From Mobula hypostoma (lineage: Eukaryota): a DNA stretch of 64,000 bases. Positions 3,440-58,627 of this stretch are shown piece by piece; the first letter of the stretch is position 1; the number at the start of each line of letters is the position of its first letter. The stretch spans positions 87,546,001-87,610,000 of the forward strand of contig NC_086097.1 in assembly GCF_963921235.1 (NCBI RefSeq), written 5' to 3'. Made by a program: the position numbers and the translations under genes. The notes beneath the pieces were generated by a model. The model was not told the origin of the DNA. It made no database searches and saw only the letters and a list, made by a program, of their open reading frames with translations.

Positions 3440-4885
3440 TCCAGTTACCTTGTAAGGTAACCGTAGCCTTCAGCCAGGAGTAGATGTTATCAGGTGGTTC
3501 CCAACCTTCACTGAGTGTTTCAACCCTTAACCATGACACTCTTCAGCTGGTGGGCCGGCAGTGGTGGCCAAATCACTGCCCAACTGATCTTGGTTTCCAG
3601 CTTCCCTCCTCTCGCCTACTCCAAATCCAACAAGAGGCTCGTTCCTACGAGCTGCTTGTTCTTTGCTCCTTCGTCCAGGCCCAGATCTGACAACATCCGC
3701 CATGCTGATTTGGCTGGGAAACCTCTGCAGCCAACCTCTGCAGGGAACAACCATGCCTGCCATCCCTTGTCTTTACACTCCTGCACTAAGGGCTGGTACT
3801 TCAAGGCCTTTCTCTCATGGGCCTCTTCCCATCCCTCCTCCCACGGCACAGTCAGCTCAACCAGAATTATTTTCTTGTCTTCGGTTGACCACAGTACAAT
3901 GTCCGGGCGTAAGGTTGTGTGCACCACATCTGGGAACTGCAACCTCCTTCCCATATCGACCTTCTTCTCCCATTACCTGGCCGTTTGGAGCAGATTAGGC
4001 TTTGGTTGTTTGGTTACGAAAGACCTAGCTCCCTCTTTGGTGAAGGTGATAGCCTTCCTCAAATCTGTGCCAGCTGTCCTCTTCTTGCATCTCTCCCGCT
4101 CTATTATGTCAGCAAGAGCCAGAAGCACCTTATCATGGTGCCACCTATATCGTCCTTGAGTTAGAGCTGTTTTACACCTGGACAGTATATGAGCCAGTGT
4201 CCCCTTTTGACCACAGAGCTTACAGTTCGGGTCCTCTCTCATCCCCCATGTGTACAGATGTAATAGTGAAGGAAGGGTGTCATACATGGATCGCAAGAGG
4301 AAGGAAATATGGAAGGGCTAAGTCTCCATAACTCTGCCCATGAGATCTTGCGCTTAGGCAGATCCCATTTTGTCCAGGCACCCTGGGACCCTTGTTCCAC
4401 TGCCTTTGACATCTGCTTTTCTTCCTCATGGATCCATACTTCTGCCTGTATCATGTCTCGCCTGTTCCTTATGCTTGCGTTTCCACACTTCTGGTAGTGA
4501 ACAGAGCCGAGGCCTTGCCGCCTGACGCAGGGGTTGCCGATGAAATCTCGCAGCTTCCGAGAACACACTGCCTCCTCCACAGCTGTGATGTCTGCCCACT
4601 TGCGCCCAGATCTGGTTGTAACGTCTGCTTGCTTTACCAAGACGACATTGGAATCTCTCAAGCTTAATAAGGCTCTGCATTTTGCCACCTTGAATGCCTT
4701 CTCAACAGATGACAGGGGAAGTTGAAGTTGCAGTTGCCCAGAACGAATGTAGAGGCCCACTGAAGAGAAGCTTGGGGGAAATCCCAACCATCTCCACAGG
4801 TGCTTGTTGGTTTTCCTCTCAATGCCTTCTACGGCAGTCATGGGGTACTCATAAAGTGTGAAGAGCCAGAGAAGCCTTGGCAGAA
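3440..4885 (-). mobile_element. HERO-type (R2-group) non-LTR retrotransposon with restriction-like endonuclease, 5'-truncated and frameshifted
   Basis: Three successive minus-strand ORFs: 4239-4940 (late RT/linker ILPRLLWLF...QGAWTKW), 3973-4296 (CCHC CKLC...HILSRC, RWHHDKVL) and 3616-3954 (LRPDIVLW...VELTVPWE...RKALKY...EVGCRGF, a PD-(D/E)xK nuclease). ERASCWIWSRRE follows in a shifted frame. Confidence 0.8.
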
Positions 4886-5524
4886 TGAATGTGTGTATAT
4901 AAATAAATAACGGGTGGGGTACAAGGGGGAGGTGGGGCATTAGCAGAAGTTTGAGAAGTCAATGTTCATGCCATTGACTTGACTTGGAGGCTACCCAGAG
5001 GGAATATAGGGTGTTGTTCCTCCAACCTGAGTGTGGCTTCATCTTTACAAATAGAGGAGGCTGTGGATAGACATATCAGAATGAGAATGGGATGTGGAAT
5101 TTGTGTGGCCACTGGGAGATCCTTCTTTCTTTGATGGACAGACACTCATATTCATTCTGTCTCTGTCTCTGTCTCTCTCTCTTCCACCCCCCCCCCCATC
5201 CATCCTCTGGGTTTCCCCCCCTCCCCCTTTTCTTTCTCCTTGTGCCTCCTGTCCCATGATCCTCTCATATCCCTTTTGCCAATCACCTGTCCAGCTCTTG
5301 GCTCCATCCCTCCCCTCCTGTCTTCTATCATTTTGGATCTTCCCCTCCCCCTCCCACTTTCAAATCTCTTACTAGCTGTTCTTTCAGTTAGTCCTGACAA
5401 AGGGTCTCGGCCCGAAACGTCAACTGTACCTCTTCCTAGAGATGCTGCCTGGCCTGGTGCGTTCACCAGCAACTTGGATGTGTGTTGCTTGAATTTCCAG
5501 CATCTGCAGATTTCCTCGTGTTTG
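4885..5524. mobile_element. Penelope-like element 3' portion, inverted arrangement (minus arm about 4885-5130, plus arm about 5140-5524)
   Basis: The minus arm encodes the GIY-YIG C-terminal remnant (NSTSHSHSDMSIH). The plus arm matches 53480-53875, with a decayed hammerhead at 5390-5425 (CTGACAA) and the terminal tail. Confidence 0.8.
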
Positions 5525-5589
5525 AGTGAAATTATCCTGTTTGGTTCAAGAGGGATCCAAATGCCTTTAAAACATATGTAATTGTACTT

Positions 5590-6693: not shown

Positions 6694-6941
6694 GCACAAA
6701 ATGATGGAGGAAATCAGTGGGCCAGGCAGCATCAATGGAAAAAAGCACAGTTAATGTTTTGAGCTGAAAACACAGACAACAGAAAATCTGCAGATACTGG
6801 AAATCCAAGCAACACACAAAAACCACATTTTCGCTCATAACGTCGACTGTACTTTTTTCCATAGATGCTGCCTGGCCTGCTGAGCTCCCAGCATTTTGTG
6901 TGTGTTGCTCAGTTTTCCAGCATCTGCACATTTTCTCTTGT
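6694..6941. mobile_element. Penelope-like fold-back insertion (subfamily B), three-piece
   Basis: Inverted arms containing ggccaggcagcatc and gatgctgcctggcc. TSD tcatggttgtgttaa (6679-6693) vs tcacggttctgttaa (6942-6956). Confidence 0.75.
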
Positions 6942-7145
6942 TCACGGTTCTGTTAAATGTTAGCATAGAACTTGAAAGTTGGCTGGCTCAAGATATAACT
7001 GTGGTTTGGAGGAGAATTGAGGAAGGATAATTGAGGTAGTATCTGAATTCAACTCCTAGGTGTTGTGAGCTTCACATATGGCAACAGCTAATATTGGCTA
7101 TACTTGTTTTTTTGCCTAAATATAATCATCTTGAGGTGCTTTTTA

Positions 7146-7852: not shown

Positions 7853-7978
7853 CAAACAAGAGAAAATCTGCAGATGCTGGAAATCCAAGTGACACACACA
7901 TGATGCTGGAGAAACTCGGCAGGCTAGGCAACAGTATGGATAAGAGTCGACATTTTGGGCGGAGACCGTTCATCAGAA
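7853..7978 (-). mobile_element. Penelope-like terminal fragment (subfamily B), single arm
   Basis: aaatctgcagatgctggaaatccaag...gagtcgacattttgggcggagaccgttcatcag; the fragment ends at the hammerhead CUGAUGA box. Confidence 0.7.
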
Positions 7979-11227: not shown

Positions 11228-11265
11228 CAACACGAGGAAATCTGCAGATGCTGGAAATACAAAGC

Positions 11266-11301
<36 letters not shown>

Positions 11302-11447
11302 ACTGGAGAAACTCAGCAGGTCAGGCAACATCCATGGAACTGAATTTATAGTCGATGTTTCAGGATGAGTTTTGGCCTGGAACATCAACTATTTTTTTCA
11401 TTTCCATGGATGCTGTTGAGTTCATGCAGCATTTTGTGTGTGTGTTG
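11228..11447. mobile_element. Penelope-like fold-back insertion (subfamily B) with internal (CA)n expansion
   Basis: TSD ttattcttgaggtt (11214-11227) vs ttattgttgaggtt (11448-11461). The inverted arms join at a decayed hammerhead near 11350-11390. (CA)n at about 11268-11298. Confidence 0.8.
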
Positions 11448-11829: not shown

Positions 11830-12465
11830 CTCTGCAAAATGATCTCCTAGTCTAGGCCTGTTTTGCCAATGTAGAGGAGGTCATCTTGAGTTTCAAGTTG
11901 CATTTTCTCTGCTTTCACCATGATGATGCCAAATCCAATCTAGAAGAACAGCATCTCCTATTCCTTTTGAGTAGTCAAAAAAAATTCAGGTTATCCACTC
12001 CCCTTTTTCCACTCCTACCAGTCCATCCAGGGTCTCCCTCCTTGTTCACTTTTTCCATATCTTCCTACTCCCTCCCCCACCCCACTTGTTAACTGCTTTC
12101 ATCACCGACTCCTTCCCTCTTGTCCAAGACACAGGCGCACAAACGTGGCTCCATCTACCTATTTATTTTGGTTATTTTTCCACCTATTATCTTCAGCCTC
12201 TGTCTCAATACTCTCACTTCACTTTCTTGGTTCCACTGCCCCCAAAACCTCCCCCACCTTCTCCCTGTCTGGTTCCGCCTAACACCTTCCAGCCTCCCTC
12301 TGTCTCACCCCTCTCTTTCATCCTTACACACTCAGCCTTGATGTTGAGATCTCAACCAGAAATGTCTACCATCGCTTTGCTTCATAGATGCTGCTTAACC
12401 AGCTGATTTCTTACAGTAGTTTGTTTTGCTCCAGATTTCAGCATCTGCAGTCTCTTGTGTCTCCT
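11830..12465 (+). mobile_element. Older, diverged Penelope-like 3' portion
   Basis: ORF 11886 contains DAKSNLEEQHLLFLL, paralogous to EATLRLEEQHLIFRL at 53350. A pyrimidine-rich spacer and tail catagatgctgc...agatttcagcatctgcag follow. A further decayed hairpin lies at about 12560-12765. Confidence 0.65.
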
Positions 12466-15430: not shown

Positions 15431-15809
15431 GTGCTTTATTTTATGAGCATGTATATTGTATGCACACTTTCAATTCACTGAAATGTATATAATATAAATA
15501 TGAAAATTTGATTTTTATTCCTAGAACATGGGTGTTGCTGTGATGGGGAGTATTTGACCCACATTTCTAATCACTCTAGAAGGTTGTGCTGCCTAGATGT
15601 GTAATTTGGGGAAAATGGTGATGTTTCTATGCATCTACTTACAGCAGTTCCCTTGGTCTAAATGTTGGTGAAGGCTCTCAGCCTGAAACATCGACTGTTT
15701 ATTCCCATCCATAAATGAGCACCTCCAGCACATTATGTGTATTGCTTGTTTGAAAGGTGTTATTAAGAACCCTTGCTAACTTGATTTGCAGCATCATGTA
15801 AATGCTACA

Positions 15810-16503
15810 GAGTAGACGTCATGATATTTTTTAACGTGGTCGATGCAGTTGCTTCAATACTCTGCAATTCGAAGTCGCTGCCCGTGGAGGGGCCACTGGG
15901 TCCCAATACTCTCAGAGATGTTATCGAAATGTGTAATTTATGGATTGGACTGTAGTTCATATCAGCCTCTTTCAGTTCTATTGTGTTCTTGTCCATTTAT
16001 TCTTGCTACTGATTGGTGGGCTGGGGTTTTGGGGTCTGATGTTGTTTCTCCATGTGGGTGATCTGTTAGTCTATGCGAAGGAGCGGTTGTGGGGGGGGGG
16101 GGAGGATTTTGCAGTTAGCAAGTTTTTGTTTCTTTTTCTTTTAGTGTGGGGAGGGGATTGATGTCTGTCTTTTAACTACTTCAGTCATTTTCTATATTTT
16201 CTGGCTAGCTGGAGAAGACGAATCAAAGTTGCTGGTGAACGCAGCAGGCCAGGCAGCATCTATAGGAAGAAGTACAGTCGGTGTTTCAGGCCGAAACCCT
16301 TCCTCAGGATGAAGGATCTCGGCCTGAAATGTCGACTGTACCTCTTCCTAGAGATGCTGCCTGGCCTGCTGCGTTCACCAGCAACTTTGATGTGTGTTGC
16401 TTGAAATTCCAGCATCTGCAGAATTCCTGTTGTTGGAGAAGACAAATCTTAGTTGTGTTCTGCATACATATATTGATAACAAAAATGGACCTTTTGAACC
16501 TTT
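15810..16503 (+). mobile_element. Non-coding element with Rex1-like 3' tail, interrupted by a Penelope-like hairpin
   Basis: After removing 16225-16434 the 3' end reads gaagacaaatcttagttgtgttctgcatac...gataacaaaaatggaccttttgaacc, like the Rex-type tail at 52600-52670. Confidence 0.45.
16225..16434. mobile_element. Penelope-like fold-back insertion (subfamily A), 210 bp
   Basis: TSD ggagaagacgaatc (16211-16224) vs ggagaagacaaatc (16435-16448). The inverted arms join inside the hammerhead (…cctcag|gatgaagg…). Only the plus arm has the terminal tail. Confidence 0.88.
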
Positions 16504-26160: not shown

Positions 26161-26633
26161 CTATAACTGTTTAATAGACAAATGCGGTGCATTATCTACG
26201 TATGAAGGTTGGATAATGATCAATAACTGGGGGAGTATTATAATTTTTGTTCCTTATGCCATCTCGATGTTGCATGTGCTCTTCAGGGACGTGATGAAGA
26301 TTCAGTAGTCTATTGACATAACTGAGCATGCACAAAAGTTGTTCATTGAGAATGCTAGAGTGGGAACTGTTGTTATTAATACAACTACAGTGCATTCTGG
26401 TAAGGGGGAATATAGATGGAAATCCAGTTACTTTATTGAATATATACACACCCCCAGGAAGTGCTATTAGTTTCTTCTAGAAAATTACTAATATTATGGT
26501 AACTGAAACAGAAGGTCTCTTGATATGTGGGGGAGACTTGAATTTACAATTACAACCAAAGTTAGACTCTTCCAATAGGAAAAACTTATGAAACAAAGTC
26601 CTTACACAAGAAAGTTAACACTCTTTTTGAGGA

Positions 26634-26819
26634 CAACAGGAATTCTGCAGATGCTGGAAATTCAAGCAACATACATCAAAGTTGCTGGTGAACGCAGCAG
26701 GCCAAGCAGCATCTGTAGGAAGAGGTGCAACGAAGGGTCTCGGCCTGAAATGTCGACTGCACCTCTTCCTACAGATGCTGCTTGGCCTGCTGCGTTCACC
26801 AGCAACTTTGATGTGTGTT
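26634..26819. mobile_element. Penelope-like fold-back insertion (subfamily A), 186 bp, inside the L1 endonuclease
   Basis: Perfect 14-bp TSD actctttttgagga (26620-26633 and 26820-26833). About 60-bp near-perfect inverted arms flank a truncated hammerhead (acgaagggtctcggcctgaaatgtcgac). Confidence 0.92.
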
Positions 26820-27112
26820 ACTCTTTTTGAGGATGTTGGTCCAATTGATATATGGAGGGACCTTTTCCTCGACAGAAGGGATTACACTCATTATTCTGCC
26901 CCCCATTCCGTATATAGAAGAATAGACTATTTCATAACATTTGGAAAAGATAGAGACAAAATAATCACCTGTGGAATTAGGACAATAGATGTAAGTCACC
27001 TATATATTTATCTCAAACAACAGAAATTTTGCAGATGCTGGAAATTCAAGCAACACACATCAAAGTTGCTGGTGAACACAGCAGGCCAGGCAGCATCTGT
27101 AGGAAGAGGTGC

Positions 27113-27148
27113 AGTCGACATTTCAGGCCGAGACCCTTCGTCAGGACT
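27113..27148 (-). ncRNA. Minimal type I hammerhead ribozyme motif (helix III with a U-G wobble)
   Basis: Minus strand reads AGTC CTGACGA AGGGTCTCGGCCT GAAAT GTC GACT. Confidence 0.65.
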
Positions 27149-27883
27149 AACTGAAGGAAGAGTGAGTAAGGGATTTGAAAGTTGGAGGGGGAGGGGGAGA
27201 TCCAAAATGATAGGAGAAGACAGGAGGGGGAGGGATAGAGCCAAGAGCTGGACAGGTGATAGGCAAAAGGGGATACGAGAGGATCATGGGACAGGAGGTC
27301 TGGGAAGAAAGGCAAGGGGGGGGACCCAGAGGATGGGCAAGAGGTATATTCAGAGGAACAGGGGGAGAAAAAGGAGAGTGAGAGAAAGAATGTGTGCATA
27401 AAATAAATAACAGATGGGGTACGAGGGGGAGGTGGGGCCTTAGCGGAAGTTAGAGAAGTCGATGTTCACGGCCTCCTCTACTGTAAAGATGAAGCCACAC
27501 TCAGGTTGGAGTAACAACACCTTATATTCCGTCTGGGTAGCCTCCAACCTGATGGCATAAGCATCGACTTCTCTAACTTCCACTAAGGCCCCACCTCCCC
27601 CTCGTACCCCATCTGTTACTTATTTTTATGCACACATTCTTTCTCTCACTCTCCTTTTTCTCCCTCTGTCCCTCTGAATATACCTCTTGCCCATCCTCTG
27701 GGTCCCCCCCACCTCCTTGTCTTTCTTCCCGGACCTCCTGTCCCATGATCCTCTCGTATCCCCTTTTGCCTATCACCTGTCCAGCTCTTGGCTCTATCCC
27801 TCCCCCTCCTGTCTTCTCCTATCATTTTGGATCTCCCCCTCCCCCTCCAACTTTCAAATCTCTTACTCACTCTTCCTTCAGTT

Positions 27884-27919
27884 AGTCCTGACGAAGGGTC
27901 TCGGCCTGAAACGTCGACT
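27884..27919 (+). ncRNA. Minimal type I hammerhead ribozyme motif, intact core
   Basis: AGTC CTGACGA AGGGTCTCGGCCT GAAAC GTC|GACT: stem I AGUC/GACU, CUGANGA box, short stem II, GAAA box, loopless palindromic ACGU helix III and a GUC triplet (predicted cut after 27915). Confidence 0.8.
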
Positions 27920-29420
27920 GCACCTCTTCCTACAGATGCTGCCTGGCCTGCTGCGTTCACCAGCAACTTTGATGTGTGTTGCTATATATTTATCTGTTAA
28001 CTTTGACCTACAACCAAAGAATACTATGTGGAAACTAAATGTAAGTCTACTCAAGGATCCCTATTTTAAGGAACAGATTTAAAAAAAATTGGTCTTTACT
28101 TAGAATTCAGTGATAATGGAGAGATTTCACCTCCCATTCTATGGAATACTCTGAAGGCTATCTTAAGAGGGAAAATTATAGTGATATCTTCATATAAGAA
28201 AAAGTAAGGAATAAAACATTAGAGGAATTACAAAATAGGCTGAAGGAACAAGAAAAAAACACAAATTGAGTTTGGCACAGGATACACAAGAGGAAACTAA
28301 AAAAATTAGGAATGAAATTAATAGTTTGGCTACACAAGAAATTAGAAAAAAAATAATGTTTCGGAAACAGAGACACTATGAAAGTGGATCTAAATCTATG
28401 AAAATACTGGCGTGGAAACTGGGGAAAAAAGATAGCAGAAAATACAATTCATAGAATTAGGGATCGAAGAACGAAAGTGATTTTAAAAAAAAATAAATAA
28501 GCCATGTGAAATTCATGAAGCTTTTGAAATGTTTTGCAAAACTCTATATTCCAAAGTTCCAGGGGGAAACTTAACTCAAATTGACACCTTCCTGAATTCT
28601 TCGGAGTTACCCACTTTAAGCAAAAAACAAAATAGAAAGATGACTGCTGACGTAACTGAAGCTGAACTAAAAACTGCAATTAGTAGGCTTAAATTAAGCA
28701 AGTCACCAGGATCAGATGGATATATGGCAGAGTGATATAAAGAGTTTAGAAGTGAGTTAATCCCTGTTTTACTCCCCACACTGAACTGGGCTCTGAGAAA
28801 GGCGCAAATGCCACCTAGCTGGAAGGAGGCAATAATCTCAGCTATACCGAAAGAAGGCAAGGATAACATGGAATGTGAGTCATTTAGACCAATATCTGTT
28901 CTTAATGTGGATTATAGAATATTTACCTCCATCATGTCCAAACGATTAGAAGAGTTTCTACCCACACTGATACATTATGATCAGATAGGTTTCATACAAC
29001 AACGCCAAACACAAGACAGTATACAAAGGACACTTCACATTATGGATCATATATATATAAAAAAAATGAAATTGTAGCAATAATAATAAGCGTGGACGCT
29101 GAAAAGGCATGTGATTTGGTTAATTGGAATTTTCTTTATAGAGTTTTGCATAGATTTGGTCTACATGACACAATTATTAAAACTATACAGGCACTATATG
29201 ATAATCCTACTGCCAAGATTAAAATCAATAGATATTTATCTAATAGTTTTACCCGAGAAAGGGGCACGAGACAGGGTTGTGCATGGTCACCGCTACTCTC
29301 CGCATTATATCTGGAACCATTAGCTCAATACATCAGACAAAATGAAGATATCAGGGGAATTACTATTAAAGGGGGTGAGCATAAATTGGCCTGTTAAGCG
29401 GATGACATTTTGATCTATCT

Positions 29421-30056
29421 AGATTAGATTAGATTATGAGGACACGCAGTCCTCTTTTATTGTCATTTAGTAATGCATGCATTAAGAAATGATACAATAT
29501 TCCTCTGATGTGATATCACAGAAACACAGGACAGACCAAGACTGAAAAACTAACAAAAACCACATAATTATAACATATAGTTACAACAGTGCAACAATAC
29601 CATAACTTGATGAAGAACAGGCCATGGTACAGTAAAAAAGTTCAAAGTCTCTCGAAAGTCCCGCATCTCACGCAGACAGGAGAAGGAAGAAAACTCTCCC
29701 TGCCATGCCCGACCACAGTCCGACTCTGAGTCGTCCGAATACTTCGAGCTCTGATCAGCCCTCCGACACTGAGTACTGAGCACCATCTCTGCCGAACGCT
29801 TTGACCTCAGCCTCGGTAGCCAGCAGCAGGCAAAGCTGGGGATTTTGGGGCCTTCTCCCAGGAGATTCTCGATTGCACAGTAGCAGTGGCAGCGAACCGG
29901 GCATTTCAGAAATTTCTCCAGATGTTCCTCTGCTTCTCACGTCTGTCTCCATCAAATCAGAATTGTGCCCGGCTTCCTACTTACAAATTCAATATCATTT
30001 CACCGAAGAGGCTACGCGCGCTGCGTCGCGCTGCCATCTTCTCCTCCCGCCTTAAT
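29421..30056 (-). mobile_element. Non-coding LINE-dependent element with (AATCT)n tail, inserted just after the L1 RT YADD motif
   Basis: Removing it restores ADDILIYL|GQPTDCLPKLM. CpG-rich 5' end ggcgggaggagaagatggcagcgcgacgc. Paralogue at 41150-41816. Confidence 0.85.
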
Positions 30057-30665
30057 AGGGCAACCAACAGACTGTTTACCTAAATTGATGCAATCTTTTG
30101 AACAATGTGGCCAATTATCAGGGTACAAGATCAACATAGATAAAATCCAACTACTTTCATACAACTATAGCCCACCAAGAGAAATTGAAAGTAGATATCC
30201 TTGGGCATGGCAAACAGAGTCCATCAAATATTTGGGTATCATTATGCCCAAAGATTTGGCAAAATTATGAGAACGCAATTATCAATCTATATATAAAAAA
30301 TTAAGGAAGATATAACAAGGTGGGACCTAATTCCTTTTCTTGGTCTCAGTTCAAGGATTGAATCTATTAAAATGAATATACTGCCCAGACTACTATATCT
30401 CTTTCAGACCCTACCAATAGAGATTAACCAAAATCAATTCAATGAGTGGAACAAGATGCTATCAAGCTATATATGGCAAGGTAAAAGGCCTAGGGTTCGT
30501 CTCAAAACTTTGCAATTAGCCATGGAAAAGGGGGATGGGATCTGCCTTAGAGATTATTGTTTTGCAGCACAGTTGAGAACTGTGATATACTAGTGCAACC
30601 CATCATGTGACACTCAATGGAAAAACATTGAGGAGAGGATATTTTCCATCCCCATACAGGCAATT

Positions 30666-31676
30666 TTGGCTGATAACAACCTACAGCGTTACATAAATAA
30701 TATTGACAACCCATGGGTGAAATTGACTCTTAAAATATGGAAAACTATTATAAAAGAATATAAACTAGAGAGAGACATTGCAATTCTTAAATGGTGTGCA
30801 TATGACTCGGATTTTACGCCAAATAATCTGGATGCTAAATTTAAGGACTGGACAGCTAAAGGAATTACAGCTATTTGCAACATAATGAAAGAAGGAACAC
30901 TGTTCAGTTTTGAAATGCTCAGAGAGAAACACTTATTAGAAAAACAAGACTTTTACCGGTATTTACAGATGCGACAGTATGTTAATAGGACGGTTAAAAA
31001 TGTAGGCAAGGCAAGTACATATCTGATAGAGCTATTTAGAAAAGCATATAATTCAGACAATGGTAGTAAAATCATTTCAAGCATGTATAAGGGTTTGCCA
31101 AATCTTAAAACACATTCGACTTCATACATTAAAACAAAATGGGAGAAGGAAGGAGGGATAATAATATCTGAGGAAGAATGGACAATAATATGGAGGTATC
31201 AATGGAAGTGTACCAGTTCACAGAAATGGAGGGAGTTTGGATGGAAAAACTTGATAAGATATTTTATTGCACCCTCTCAGAAATCCCATTATGATAGTAA
31301 CCCCCCTGTTTGCTGGAGAAATTGTGGAAATCAAAATGCAAACCATGATCATATTTTCTCGGAATGCCCAGTTATCAAACACTGTTGGAGTGGGATACAT
31401 AATGCCCTACAAGACATCTTTAAATGTGAAATACCCTTAGAGAGTAAGACCATATATTTTGGGTATATACCTCAAGAATGGTTGAAAAGAGATAAATATT
31501 TAATGAATGTACTGATGGTGACCGGTAAAAAGACCCTGACCAGGAAATGGTTATCACAGGAGAGCCCAACTTTAAATGTATGGATGGAAATTACAATGGA
31601 CATTTACAAAATGGAGAAGATAACAGCATCTGTTAATCATAAGTTGGAACAATTTTATTCATATTGGAAAAAATAG
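30666..31676 (+). pseudogene. Open C-terminal segment (336 aa) of L1 ORF2 with the CCHC zinc knuckle
   Basis: Longest ORF in the window. It continues frameshifted RT fragments (28808, 29092, 30372), and its start codon is not a real initiator. Confidence 0.85.
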
Positions 31677-31862
31677 TTTAACTACATAACACCTCATAGG
31701 CCTGATTTTATTCTCACAAGTCAATGAATATGTTGTAAAAAAAAGATCACTCCCTACTCTGTACATAGTTTTCTTCTTTCGATTGTTCTTTCCTCTCTTC
31801 TATAAGTGTATACCTCAGACAAATATTATGTGGAGATTTGTGACAAATATGATTATAAGGGA

Positions 31863-50783: not shown

Positions 50784-53249
50784 CAAGTTTCATTTCTCTC
50801 TCTTTCCCACCTCTGCCTTTTAGATGTCAATAGAGGAAACTGGATTGGCTAAGTATGAGTTGTCAACATCTATCTTTAATGCATAAATATTAGATAAAAA
50901 GCTCAATGAATTACCTATTCTCAAAATGTGCTTCCATTTCATTTCCTTCAAGAGTAGTCATAAGATATTTGCTCTCTCATACCTGGATAAATATACTGCA
51001 CTGGCTTTGCATCCCATTTTGAGTTTGGTAAACTTATTCATTTGTCTGTCTACCATCAGTCTCTGCATAACTGATTCTGAATCTGTACTTCTGAAAAAGC
51101 ACTTGCCTTTCAGTGTGGTAGCACTCCATATTATTGACAAAAGTGGATGCAAAAATATGCATTGGCTTCTTCTGAACGGGATTATGAACTCTATAGCTCA
51201 GGATTTAGAGAAAAATATCACTGGATATCCTTCAAATCAGGTATTTTTTATTTGTTTATTTATTTTATAAATTACTGTATGGTCTGCTGCATTGGAAGAA
51301 TAGCAACATGAAGTATCTACATAACACGCAACTCTTTAAGTTGTATTCCTTTGATTATTGGAACAAATAATCAACCAGTAGAGACCAGTATGTCCATGTT
51401 TGGCCATTTGTACCAGAATATCAGTGCTGTTTTTATGGAAAACAGTGGGTCACTTTTACTCTGTTAGAAGCTGTACAATGCTATGTAAATCGAGGAGTAA
51501 TAAATCCATTATTCATTATGTTTGTTTGAATGTGCACATGTTTGGATGCCTTCCTGGATAATCTGCACCACCTTTTGGTACATTCACCTTTTTTAAACAA
51601 AAAAAATGTGTAGATGCTTATAACCAGTCATTGGTGCATCCTTACTCACTGATCAAGGCTATAATTTAGCTCTGCTTCCCACTGCTAATTTGACATCCAT
51701 TGTTGCCTCCAGGCTATGCCAGTGTTTATCTAGCCACCCACATTGTTAATGGAGTGGAAGTCATCCCTGATCCCAAGGTGCCACCTAAGATGATGATCAG
51801 TAATCAGGACTCATCTAAATCCATGTTGGTCACATCTTCAATCAAATCATGCCTGGTGCTTCATAAGTTTTGTACTTGTTTCCTTCAATTGGCCACCACT
51901 GTGATGGTGAATGGATTTTTAATATCTTCATCCTTGTGCATCAGTTCCTCCATGCTACCATTGCTCACTGTTCTCTGTAAGCTTCTCTACTCTGTGAGCT
52001 TCTGGAACCTCCTTCCCTACCGAAGTTTCTTTGCTGTTTCTATTGGCAGTAGTGTCTTCACCTACCAGGGTCTTTTGCACTCCTACCTCTTCTTTAAAAG
52101 GATCGTTGGAACCTAATTTCTTAAGTTTTACACACCAATTTGTGTGTAATACAAACATGAATACAATAACTCAATAGGGGAGGTACATCTGTAGTAAGAG
52201 GAACCAGATTAATGTTTCAAATCTTTGGCCTTTCTTAACTGCACAACCAATATCTGTGTTAATTTTTACGTAATGTTCCAGCGAAGTACCTTAAGTATGT
52301 TGTTTCAACCTCAATCAATCATCATAAAATATGCCAGCTGATAACTTAAAACACTGTCCCCTCCATCTCTAAGTAGCTCCTTTGAGGGGATAACTACATT
52401 CATTTGCTCATCCATTGAGATGTTCCAAACAGTTAATTACCTCACTTTAAGGACTCTTTATCTTGTTATTTCCTGTTCTCATTATTTATTGCTATTTACT
52501 TACATTTGCATTTGCACAGTTTGTCGTCTTTTGCACTTTCCTCGATCTTTCATTAATCCTGTACAGTTACTATTCTATAGATTTGCTGAGTATGCCCGCA
52601 GGAAAATTAATCTCAGGTTTGTATGTGGTGGCAGACATGTACTCTGATAATAAAACGAACTTTGAACTTTTTTTAGAATTGGGTATTTGTGCAGATGACA
52701 GCTGCTCTCCGAAACAATTAGTGTGTCAGTATATTTTCTTGCTATTTTTGCGGACTTTCAAACTAAATTATCTATTATTAAGATCTCAGACAATCTGTGT
52801 TGGCAGCAACGTATCTAGCTCCAACATGCTGAGCACTGGCACCCCCGGGGCTGAGTGCTCAGGCCGCTGCTGTTCACACTGCTGACGCATGACTGTACTG
52901 CCAAATCTAGCTCTAACCATATCATTAAATTCACTGATGGTATGACAGTGGTTGGCCTCATCAGCACCAATGATGAGTTGGCATGCAGAGAGGACGAAGA
53001 GTGGCTTGTGGACTGGAACACAACAACTTGACTCTCAACGTGGACAAGACCGAAGGGATGATTGTGGACTTCAGGGATATGCAGGCTGACCACTCCCTAC
53101 TGCACATCATGGATTATCTCACCTTGTCCCTGTACACCACTCCTTTAGTCAAGAAACTATGGCAGTGCTTTTACTGCCTAAGGAGACTGAGGCAAGCGAG
53201 GCTCCTTGCCCCATTCTAACTGCATTCTACTGGAGCACCATCGAGAGTG

Positions 53250-53875
53250 TCCGCCAGAGAAAGCAGGATCTCCCAGTGGCCACACATTTTAATTCCACAT
53301 CCCATTCCCATTCTGACATGTCTATCCACGGCCTCCTCTACTGTAAAGATGAAGCCACACTCAGGTTGGAGGAACAACACCTTATATTCCGTCTGGGTAG
53401 CCTCCAACCTGATGGCATAAACATTGACTTCTCTAACTTCCGCTAGGCCCCACCTCCCCCTCGTACCCCATCTGTTACTCTTTATAATGCACACATTCTT
53501 TCTCTCACTCTCCTTTTTCTCCCTCTGTCCCTCTGAATATACCTCTTGCCCATCCTCTGGGTCACCCCCCCCCCCCGTCTTTCTTCCCGGACCTCCTGTC
53601 CCATGATCCTCTCGTATCCCCTTCTGCCTATCACCTGTCCAGCTCTCGGCTCCATCCCTCCCCCTCCTGTCTTCTCCTATCATTTTGCATCTCCCCCTCC
53701 CCCTCCAGCTTTCAAATCCCTTACTCACTCTTCCTTCAGTTAGTCCTGACGAAGGGTCTCGGCCTGAAACGTCGACTGCGCCTCTTCCTATAGATGCTGC
53801 CTGGCCTGCTGCGTTCACCAGCAACTTTGATGTATGTTGCTTGAATTTCCAGCATCTGCAGAATTCCTGTTGTTG
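53250..53875 (+). mobile_element. Penelope-like element 3' portion (GIY-YIG C-terminus, pLTR with hammerhead, tail); longest arm in the window
   Basis: Open frame RQRKQDLPVATHFNSTSHSHSDMSIHGLLYCKDEATLRLEEQHLIFRLGSLQPDGINIDFSNFR*, a PVA.HF...R..LE..LI..L....P.G.N GIY-YIG C-terminal pattern. Ends gaattcctgttgttg. Confidence 0.88.
53742..53777 (+). ncRNA. Minimal type I hammerhead ribozyme motif, intact core
   Basis: AGTC CTGACGA AGGGTCTCGGCCT GAAAC GTC|GACT, identical to 27884-27919. Predicted cut after 53773. Confidence 0.8.
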
Positions 53876-54949: not shown

Positions 54950-55629
54950 CTTTAGACCACCTTGTCTTTGCTGACCATTAAATACGCATCTATAATAATC
55001 CCATTTTCCATCACTTTGACGTACTCCTTGGTGAATACAAATGAGGTGTATTCATTTGAGACCTCACCCATGTCTCACATGCAGATCGCCCCTTTGATTT
55101 CAAATGGGCCTGCTTATTTGCTGGTTACCCTCTTGCCATTTTAAAATGCGTAAGGAGTTTTCTAAACTTCATCTGGGATTTGTATTTTGAGCTCCCATTT
55201 GCCTTAATTTCACTATTTTTGAATAGTTTTCTTTTGAATATAGATTAATCCAATCCACCAGGATATTTTCCATTGACTTTACCACCATTGATTTTAGACA
55301 CTTGCTATATTATCTTTTTTTCACCTGGTTTTGCGCACTTCCAGTTCTCTATATATGCCATATGTTTCTTTCCCACCACCCCACCCCTTATCTAGCCTTC
55401 TGTGCCTTGGTGAGTTGGTTGGAATTGTTTTGATTGCCCACCATTTCGGAATGAACTCTGGACCTCATTTGTGGTCTTTGCATCTTTTTGTCTACCTACA
55501 CTGTACTTTCTCTGTAACAATAACACTACAGAATTGTATTCCCTTGTAATACATTGTTGTACTTAAGTTTTGAAATGATCTGTATTCATGGCATGCAGAT
55601 CAAAGTATTTTAATGTAACTCAGTATGTA

Positions 55630-57226
55630 CAAACCCCATTTCCAGAGAAGTTGGGATATTTTCCAAAATGCAATAAGAACAAAAACCTGTGATATGTTAA
55701 TTCACGTGAACCTTTATTTAACTGACAAAAGTACAAAGAAAAGATTTTCAATAGTTTTACTGACCAACTTAATTGTATTTTGTAAATATAAACAAATTTA
55801 GAATTTGATGGCTGCAACACACTCAACAAAAGTTGGGACAGAGTTAAAATAAGATTGAAAAGTGCACAGAATATTCAAGTAACACCGGTTTGGAAGACTC
55901 CACATTAAGCAGGCTAATTGGTAGCAGGTGAGGTATTATGACTGGGTATAAAAGTAGCGTCCATCAAAGGCTCAGTCTTTGCAAGCAAGGATGGGTCGTG
56001 ACTGACTCCTTTGTGCCAAAATTCGTGAGAGAATTGTTAGTTCAAAAGGAACATTTCTCAATGCAAGATTGCAGACAATTTAGGTCTTTCAACATCTACA
56101 GTACATAATATTGTGAAAAGATTCAGAGAATTCAGAGACATCTCAGTGCATAAAGGGCAAGGTCAGAAACCGCTGTTGAATGCGCATGATCTTCGAGCCC
56201 TCGGGCGGCACTGCCTAAGAAACCGTCATGCTACTGTGACAATTATAGCCACCTGGACTCGGGAGTACTTTGGAAAACCATTGTCACTCAACACAGTCCG
56301 TCGCTGCATCTGGAAATACAACTTGAAACTGTATTACGCAAGGAGGAAGCCATACATCAACTCTATGCAGAAATGCCGGCAAGTTCTCTGGGCCTGAGCT
56401 CATCTCAGATGGACCAAAAGACTGTGGAACAGTGTACTGTGGTCAGATGAGATCATATTTCAGCTAGTTTTCGGAAAAGACGGGCGTCGAGTTCTCCGTG
56501 CCAAAGATGAAAATGACCATCCAGATTGTTATCAGCGAAAGGTGCAAAAGCCAGCATCTGTGATGGTATGGGGGTGCATCAGTGCCCATGGCATGGGTGA
56601 ATTGCATGTATGTGAAGGTACCATTGACTCTGAGGCATATATTAGGATTTTAGAGAGACATATGTTGCCATCAAGGCAACGCCTGTTCCTGGGACGTCCA
56701 TGCTTATTTCAGCAGGACAATGCCAGACCACATTCTGCACGGGCTACAACAGCGTGGCTTTGTAGACACAGAGTGCGTGTGCTTGACTGGCCTGCTGCCA
56801 GTCCAGATCTATCTCCTATTGAAAATGTATGGCGCATCATGAAGAGAAGAATCAGACAACAGAGACCACGGACTGTTGAGCAGCTGAAGTCTTATATCAA
56901 GCAAGAATGGACAAAATTTCCAATTGCAAATCTACTACAATTAGTACCCTCAGTTCCAAAACGATTAAAAAGTGTAATTAAAAGGAAAGGTGATGTACCA
57001 CAATGGTTAACATGCCTCTGTCCCAACTTTTGAGTGTGTTGCAGCCATCAAATTCTAAATTTGTGTATGTTTACAAAATACAATTAAGTTGGTCAGTAAA
57101 ACTATTGAAAATCTTTTCTTTGTACTTTTCTCAGTTAAATTAAGGTTCATGTGAATTAACATATCACAGATTTTTGTTTTTATTGCATTTTGGAAAATAT
57201 CCCAACTTTTCTGGAAATGGGGTTTG
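55630..57226 (+). mobile_element. Full-length Tc1 transposon, IR/DR type, 1597 bp
   Basis: TA TSD (55628-55629 and 57227-57228). About 210-bp TIRs (55630-55843 and 57016-57226), with aagttggga direct repeats at both ends of each TIR. TATA-like gtataaaag near 55946. Confidence 0.95.
55991..57010 (+). pseudogene. Tc1 DD34E transposase, disrupted
   Basis: ATG at 55991; stop at 56003; frameshift near 56040; stop at 56395-56397. WSDE, VMVWG and FQQDNARPH...WPAASPDLSPIENVW with 34 residues between D and E. Confidence 0.92.
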
Positions 57227-57664
57227 TATATGACAATAATTATTACCAATTACATTGCCCTGAAAGTTTCCAGATTTGCTTTGGCAAAGGTCTGCTTTTC
57301 CCAAAACTTGTCTTATGATTCTGAAATAAGCTTCCTCCCCAATTAAGGACCTTAATTTCTGCACCACCCTTATCCCTTTCTGTAAATGCTTTTCAATGGT
57401 ATCACCGTCACGAAGATGGTCTCCCACTGCCAATCCAGCTTCTGGCTCAGATGCATTCCCTCGTCTCTTCTCTAGGGTAACTGTCTATTTATTGTTTCAA
57501 TAAGCTGTCTTGGACACATACAGTTAAAGTTCCCAGTTCATCTCAACTTTTCACAATGGGATCCCAGTGTTGTTGGGGAAGTTGACATGCACTTACTGCC
57601 ATGACGATTTATTCTTTGTGATGTGCTTTTACATCTGTTCCTTTATCTCCTGGTAATGCTAAAA

Positions 57665-57960: not shown

Positions 57961-58529
57961 CCTGCAATGTGATTGCATGCTTTTTGTTTCTGAGCTCTGC
58001 CCATATGGTTTCATCTGAGGATCCTTCTCAGGTATGCTGCTTTATAATTTAAGAATGTTATTCTTGTATTTGTGTATCTGGTTATATATGTAGATTTAAA
58101 ATGAAACTAGTTTTACCCGAGTGACCCTCCAGAATGAATGAAATGTATTTTTCCCTTGAAAAAAATTCTGCAAAGCAGTATGCAAGAAGCCAATGTATAG
58201 CATTCCATTGTTCTAATAATTGAACTATAATAAGCTTTACATTAAATGTCAACAGCAATAAGGAGGGTTAAAAATTTTCTGCTTAAAAATGCATGTCTGC
58301 ATGTTGTGTCGGACTTCATTTGAAGTTGAAGCGTTATCTTGCCAAAAAAAATGCACAACATAAGAATGAGTATAAAATGGAATAAGCAAACAATGTTGCG
58401 TGATGGTCTGTGGCAAAGAGGCTTGTAGCTGAAGATACAGCAGAATTCAAGAGTGGGTGGTTGGCAGTGGAGAAACACATCAGTCTCATTCCTACTTTAG
58501 TCTCCCAATAGTATATTTAAAATGAGTAA

Positions 58530-58627
58530 CACACATCAAAGTTGCTGGTGAACGCAGCAGGCCAGGCAGCATCTCTAGGAAGAGGTACAGTTGATGTTTT
58601 GGGCCAAGACTCTTCATCAGGACTTAG
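58530..58627 (-). mobile_element. Penelope-like single tail-less arm, 98 bp
   Basis: Flanked by aatgagtaa (58521-58529 and 58628-58636). It ends at the 5' edge of a decayed hammerhead (…cttcatcaggact). Confidence 0.8.

Follow-up and report, generated by a model that had tools for sequence, protein, structure and literature searches.

Two identical copies of a 36-nucleotide motif with the make-up of a hammerhead ribozyme occur in this stretch of Mobula DNA, and the question they raise is whether such a motif cuts RNA and, if it does, whether the RNA is that of its carrier or of the host. In what follows, the window is the whole 64-kb stretch that was analysed. A string search found that the + strand of the window holds the exact 36-mer at two places only, 27884-27919 and 53742-53777, and the minus-strand motif at 27113-27148 differs from it by one base (C15.2 to U), just as a sequence-only reading of this DNA had it. 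That reading had also listed decayed or truncated traces near 5390, 7945, 11350, 15665, 16275-16337, 26729 and 58590. All of these proved to be homologous to the element end by BLAST and nhmmer, which also found further old element-end copies at 6836-6942 and 12323-12451. A core pattern allowing at most one mismatch had 10 matches in the window as compared with a mean of 1.47 in shuffled sequence, and none of 100 shuffles reached 10; six of the 10 relaxed matches are members of the hammerhead-bearing Penelope-like family. The features are collected in Table 1. Positions within the element are given on a scale where the predicted cut, C17, is 0 and helix I begins at -31; the two cut positions that had been named beforehand are the right predicted ones.

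Table 1. Copies of the hammerhead-bearing element and associated features in the window; positions relative to the predicted cut are signed.
Feature	Position	Strand	Details
Minimal type I hammerhead motif	27884..27919	+	Exact; predicted cut after 27915
Second exact motif copy	53742..53777	+	Predicted cut after 53773
5'-truncated Penelope-like element end	27467..27983	+	Last GIY-YIG ORF codons, ~290-nt pyrimidine-rich tract, motif; ends near +68, tail absent
Inverted partner arm of the 27467..27983 insertion, with tail	27014..27466	-	Motif 27113-27148; 422 bp align with the + arm at 96.4% identity
14-bp target-site duplication of the two-armed 27014-27983 insertion	left 27000..27013, right 27982-27995	+	
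5'-truncated element end	53248..53874	+	C-terminal GIY-YIG codons, pyrimidine-rich tract, motif, tail; 98% identity to a near-full-length copy
Miniature head-to-head insertion	26633..26822		Arms from +4 (with tail) and -24 (without tail); complete motif absent
14-bp target-site duplication of the 26633..26822 insertion	26620-26633 and 26820-26833		
Miniature head-to-head insertion	16222..16435		Arms from about -29 and -22; tail on + arm; both motifs damaged; 15-bp target-site duplication with 1 mismatch
Older inverted pair	4882..5527		+ arm motif at 5390-5425, with G8 to A, one helix I base changed and the G10.1-C11.1 pair present
Short solo copy, decayed motif	58525..58624	-	Begins at about -31
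Decayed copy, older related family	6768..6942		
Decayed copy, older related family	7853..7978	-	Begins near -29
Older copy, strongly decayed	11230..11378	-	Expanded (TG)n
Older copy, strongly decayed	12323..12451	+	Absent from the earlier list of traces
Older decayed copy	15665..15746	+	Core partly lost

The motif consists of helix I (AGUC/GACU), a CUGACGA box, an unpaired A, helix II (GGGU/GCCU) with the loop CUCG, a GAAA box and a loopless palindromic ACGU. The CUGANGA, GAAA and NUH core elements stand in type I order, helices I and II can each form with 4 bp and one unpaired base lies before position 10.1, while positions 15.2-16.2 are palindromic and loop 3 is absent. The two boxes, the GUC triplet, helix I and the palindrome had been recognized from the letters beforehand and are all present, but the register then given for helix II (AGG/CCU) has to be replaced. 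We prefer GGGU/GCCU after the unpaired A because energy evaluation gives it -6.0 rather than -4.6 kcal/mol and because it agrees with the published consensus of minimal hammerheads (min-HHRs), as reported, where an extra base lies between positions 9 and 10.1 (PMC4209133). A scan against Rfam had also been proposed as a check; no hammerhead family was among its 29 matches up to E = 5, which is expected for a motif without helix III.

As a monomer, the motif is predicted to fold into a rod (-10.0 kcal/mol) in which GACG of the core pairs with CGUC across the cut site, as compared with -6.0 kcal/mol for the open hammerhead-like form. The active double hammerhead (-9.5 kcal/mol) is about 10 kcal/mol less stable than two rods (-20.0 kcal/mol) in an energy model that ignores tertiary contacts. 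The lone motif is predicted to be an inactive rod. For the copy at 27884, 35 of 36 bases are predicted to pair with the inverted arm in read-through RNA.

The frame upstream of 53742 ends in a GIY-YIG-type C-terminus, and copies with a long frame were located by searching the window's own genome (3.48 Gb) with this frame end and an N-terminal part. The element unit is 3.5 kb long with a single 1043-aa ORF for a reverse transcriptase (RT), a Zn-linker and a GIY-YIG domain. Our open-frame sample comprised all eight listed copies with the 1043-aa frame; in seven of those fetched, a complete motif lies on each side of the ORF, 3,512-3,515 bp apart. The protein has DKG, YIDD, a CX4CxxC linker (residues 910-918 of the frame at locus L095) and GIY-YIG motifs. 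Pfam matched RVT_1 and GIY-YIG, both below the curated cut-offs, and the nearest Atlas clusters carry RT plus GIY-YIG. Partial tandems, an inverted truncated partner and an optional 30-40 bp tail, which are traits of endonuclease-bearing (EN+) Penelope-like elements (PLEs), are all found here. Judged from its sequence by the criteria in PMC8557442, the element is an endonuclease-bearing PLE of the Neptune or Nematis type, two types that the linker does not separate. At L094:1246-9290, the 3.5-kb unit is present as a triple tandem (99.4% identical) in which both complete frames end early, at 935 aa.

Several other loci are worth recording. A full-length copy at L102 is followed by an extra 135-bp repeat that begins at -30 (L102:750-1186), and two same-direction motifs there are 154 bp apart, a spacing that could allow dimerisation. 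A third related family, with the same stems and another helix II loop and downstream sequence, was seen at L212:3332-3463, L173:853-959 and L128:1717-1809. At L103:813-4115 (+), a 1101-aa frame joins what by eye is Gypsy-like integrase-region sequence to a 5'-truncated Penelope ORF; this is probably a chance in-frame insertion.

The motif had been assigned to the pseudo-LTR (pLTR) of a high-copy Penelope-like family, and this is borne out by the motifs that flank the ORF and by the copy number. The 28-base core has 55,586 exact matches in the genome (27,736 and 27,850 on the two strands) and the reversed control has none. With 60,440 matches for the 30-mer just downstream, the flank is at least as abundant as the core. 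Positions 10.1-11.1 are G-C in 9,280 of the 55,586 cores and G-U in the remaining 46,306 (83%), including both exact copies in the window. An older family has 10,612 genome matches to its own anchor. It had been suggested that the core should be checked for excess conservation and for stem covariation. The former was observed: the two families share 34 of 36 positions in the motif as compared with 30 of 57 in the flanks together (23 of 41 upstream and 7 of 16 just downstream; Fisher p = 1e-5). The latter was not, as there was no two-sided compensatory stem change among 154 descriptor hits (three shuffles gave no hits). Further downstream, identity between the families is 32/38, which is partly forced by the anchor, and 40/53. 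Since this region is also fairly conserved, the conservation may serve protein binding or a promoter. These data support the assignment of the 36-mer to a published kind, the minimal, dimer-type type I hammerhead motif in a PLE pseudo-LTR, as far as sequence can tell.

We also compared 117 young copies extending across the whole motif. At core positions outside CpGs, 1-3 copies carry a change, as in the flanks; at CpG positions 3-14 do, with the essential bases G8 (6 copies), G16.2 (11) and C17 (9) included. Because essential CpG bases decay in this set, inserted copies are not protected. At the C7-G8 CpG, tolerated changes outnumber lethal ones 12 to 4, whereas the counts for the remaining three CpGs are 14 and 35 (p = 0.0025 in a post hoc comparison), and this skew suggests selection on the catalytic core in source elements. 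Together, conservation between the families and decay in inserted copies indicate that constraint acts in the source elements and not in the relics.

Copy ends hold information about the template. For this we mapped 201 copies anchored downstream of the motif, at the first places on contig C1. Their 3' ends are bimodal, with 110 at +55 to +75 and 91 at +91 to +104. The tail is on exactly one arm in all 45 inverted pairs (42 from loci and three from the window), and 33 of these have a target-site duplication of 13-17 bp, which was seen in none of 500 random controls. Fixed-order fold-back priming is not favoured because the tail-bearing arm has the longer 5' part in 18 pairs and the shorter in 22. 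Of the 5' ends, 65 of 201 are at -20 to -39, with 18 at -30/-31 and 11 at -24/-25, and ends next to the cut site are scarce (3 at +1/+2). Solos and inverted arms both contribute to the pile at -36 to -22 (26/83 and 38/108; 44 of 249 copies reaching a locus edge were left out). Ten of the 83 solos start at -30/-31, and nine of the 14 with a start at -29 to -33 have 13-15 bp duplications. In the older family, 17 of 61 copies start at -28 to -35. Short direct duplications were seen at 14 of 205 junctions.

Genome-wide counts of exact starts (three mismatches followed by an intact 24-base body) gave 2,604 at -30 and 571 at +1, with 237 and 286 at the control positions -42 and +5; old-family copies, too, can satisfy the -30 pattern, and CpG content is not equal among the bodies. 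Among 48 newly sampled copies of one young subfamily, none starts at -30/-31, 12 start at -20 to -49 and two at +1 to +3. A pile-up at the cut site as proof of cleavage in vivo is therefore rejected as a major effect (3/201 and 2/48). The excess at +1 over +5 leaves room for some cleaved templates; in 41 of the first 100 listed +1 starts, the prefix completes a GAC match elsewhere in the element, and the +5 control has such classes too. Among ORF-bearing copies that reach -22 of the upstream repeat, three of 18 start at -33 to -36 and 15 run far past; the full-length copy at L102 starts at -178. These results show that the 5' edge of helix I is a partial stop: either some of the transcripts start there, or it is a roadblock where the sequence resembles a splice acceptor. 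They also suggest that the element is mostly copied from RNA uncut by the ribozyme.

The hot spot at this edge can be read in two ways. The reading that we prefer, to which we give just under an even chance, is that a genuine 5' end of the RNA lies here, most likely because transcription begins on the A of helix I, with short copies as run-off products primed in the 5' repeat. Transcription starts on pyrimidine-purine steps by the initiator rule, and the peaks at -30/-31 and -24/-25 are both on such steps. Old-family starts cluster at the same place, as do the solos, including those with short target-site duplications. Drosophila Penelope has an internal promoter in the corresponding repeat (PMC2377424). 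Against a real end are the ORF-bearing copies, most of which go far past it, and the empty -30/-31 class in the 48 young copies, despite their starts nearby. The passage of most long templates fits more easily with a partial reverse-transcriptase roadblock at a 3' splice-site-like boundary, caused by splicing factors or local structure, or with a preferred template-switch point; neither would be an RNA end. We consider this second reading plausible, with the chances somewhat against it. In both families a pyrimidine tract runs into an AG at -31/-30, an intron of Drosophila virilis is reported to end at the 5' edge of helix I (PMC4209133) and inverted junctions share the -36 to -22 pile. However, the junction sequences have no upstream exon in common, so a spliced template with a shared upstream exon was rejected, and the contig-derived joints falling at -31 lack GT..AG. 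The same peak is present in solos with unique flanking sequence, which indicates that fold-back microhomology alone is insufficient.

Two further explanations concern what the motif does. The dispersed copies could be catalytically active, each forming a dimer with a second sense copy in its transcript and so cutting host pre-mRNAs, in line with the earlier proposal that this genome is seeded with catalytic RNA. The two exact sense copies are 26 kb apart, and the window is T-rich on the + strand (AT skew -0.049), which is weakly compatible with an intron. We nevertheless regard this as very improbable, and the proposal is not supported: essential bases are lost at CpG rates, the monomer is predicted to be an inactive rod that is favoured over the active dimer, and a hairpin with its inverted arm is predicted to hide the copy at 27884. 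Splice-site scoring revealed no host exon in the window, nor did Pfam on 107 candidate frames, which returned transposon domains and two weak spurious hits. As a comparison, eight of nine Xenopus dimer elements are reported to show no cleavage in vitro (10.64898/2026.07.22.740005). Alternatively, the motif may be hammerhead-derived and now act mainly as a protein-binding or folding signal, or within a promoter or 3' splice site, with little or no cleavage left. The dominant subfamily with G-U at 10.1-11.1, the rod as the predicted monomer fold, the lack of a start pile at the cut site and the position of the helix I AG after a long pyrimidine tract in both families all point this way, and ribozyme mutants of the anole element are reported still to insert in vitro (PMC11167929). 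By contrast, CUGANGA, GAAA and GUC are all retained between the families while the flanks diverge, and the post hoc skew at C7-G8 reverses that at the other CpGs; on balance we think this alternative improbable.

The surroundings of the copies in the window were also recorded. From 26300 to 31700 (+) there is a decayed L1/Tx1-like LINE (subtype by eye), broken by the Penelope insertions at 26633 and 27014, with RVT_1 at 28736-29074 (E = 2e-11), a weak zf-RVT at 30594-31673 and a 360-aa open stretch. A Tc1-like DNA transposon is at 55625-57231, with 219-bp terminal inverted repeats that are 94.5% identical and a broken DDE_3 transposase at 56041-57033. At 3616-4958 (-), pieces of a non-LTR element lie in several frames and contain what we take to be a restriction-like endonuclease motif of the PD..D..E type. 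The ~290-nt pyrimidine tract at 27590-27883 (+), which makes up the 3' untranslated part of the element, with CAG at -34 and TAG at -30, resembles a splice acceptor (rough score 6.3) and is among the better-scoring signals in the window; in the older family, CAG stands directly at -30. Where the element lies in an intron in sense orientation, it could act as a cryptic acceptor.

We think it very probable that the locus belongs to a young, very high-copy PLE whose protein is of the Neptune type and whose minimal type I hammerhead likely cuts only as a protein-assisted dimer in the element's own tandem transcript. Source elements would be transcribed from tandem arrangements, and two of their motifs, 3.5 kb apart, would share a 4-bp helix III through the ACGU palindrome. 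Cleavage, if any, would need this distant second motif and probably also protein, as reported for the anole element. Two sites, one about 68 nt and the other about 102 nt downstream of the cut, are the likely priming points of reverse transcription, which would run through the uncut motif, often halting at the 5' edge of helix I; copying through an intact motif implies that the template is mostly uncut. The copies in the window are probably truncated insertion relics, unlikely to cleave host RNA. Four contig sets of presumed RNA origin cover the 3.5-kb unit, and these contigs show neither ends nor level. More tentatively, and with the odds more against than for it, these elements can be joined into one scheme. 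The transcript would start at the first base of helix I, uncut RNA would be copied, and a protein dimer would prime both target strands about 14 bp apart, one per initiation site, so that the tail would be on exactly one arm of each two-armed insertion. The ribozyme would then act on capped 5' ends of spare transcripts and not on the template. If this is true, the insertions document, on the scale of a genome, how the Penelope mechanism works in a vertebrate.

In published work, min-HHRs of PLEs are reported to be inactive as monomers and to have low activity as dimers or trimers (PMC4209133); a review also gives the dimer requirement (PMC6765202). They are described in fish Xena, Poseidon and Neptune elements (PMC4209133), and their role in PLEs is called an open question (PMC8557442). 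One supplement file of PMC4209133 has no shark or ray terms. We found no literature on this PLE family, on a shark or ray PLE hammerhead or on a start hot spot at helix I, in a search that had subscription journals and Repbase outside it. Earlier publications already describe the motif, where it lies and that it needs a dimer, and inverted partners and one-sided tails of PLEs are likewise on record (PMC8557442; PMC3846280); the family is ordinary in kind. What this genome adds is statistical power, as tens of thousands of young insertions show where cDNA begins and ends. Insertion ends speak for templates that were not cut and draw attention to one position, the 5' edge of helix I, and several intact open-frame copies offer a Neptune-type system for assays so far done on a Poseidon element.

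The closest match to the motif is the min-HHR of metazoan PLE pseudo-LTRs (Cervera and De la Pena, 2014; PMC4209133), with which it shares the type I order, the loopless palindromic helix III, the extra base before helix II, the place in both flanking repeats and thousands of dispersed single copies. Unlike the min-HHRs described there, the Mobula motif is very uniform in sequence, has a short 4-bp helix II and has predominantly G-U at 10.1-11.1. The family has at least 55,586 exact cores as compared with about 4,000 in coelacanth and about 9,000 in Xenopus (PMC4209133), although the search methods differ. The non-LTR retrozymes of a recent preprint (Li et al., 2026; 10.64898/2026.07.22.740005) are likewise hammerhead-bearing and come from vertebrate PLE terminal repeats, with one cartilaginous fish included. 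However, they are non-autonomous head-to-tail tandem arrays, whereas the copies in the window come from an autonomous family and are truncated insertions, either solo or head-to-head. We therefore rejected retrozyme identity, for which short head-to-tail units would be expected.

The protein and insertion pattern resemble those of Neptune-clade EN+ PLEs (Craig et al., 2021; PMC8557442), in which RT, a CX2-5CxxC linker plus GIY-YIG at the C-terminus, partial tandems, an inverted 5'-truncated partner and a 30-40 bp tail that is often one-ended are described; Nematis also has the linker. Compared with that description, the one-tail pattern in Mobula holds for every pair (45/45) and duplications of 13-17 bp for most. 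The anole Poseidon element PAc (Frangieh et al., 2024; PMC11167929) shares internal initiation at two sites that define the tail, with the hammerhead upstream of both. Its cleavage is reported to be protein-assisted, and we list as further likenesses that both target strands are cut and that uncut RNA is the main template in vitro. PAc belongs to another clade, the parts of its account that we compared make no mention of a 5'-end pile at helix I, and its ORF starts inside the ribozyme, whereas the first in-frame Met in Mobula is downstream of it.
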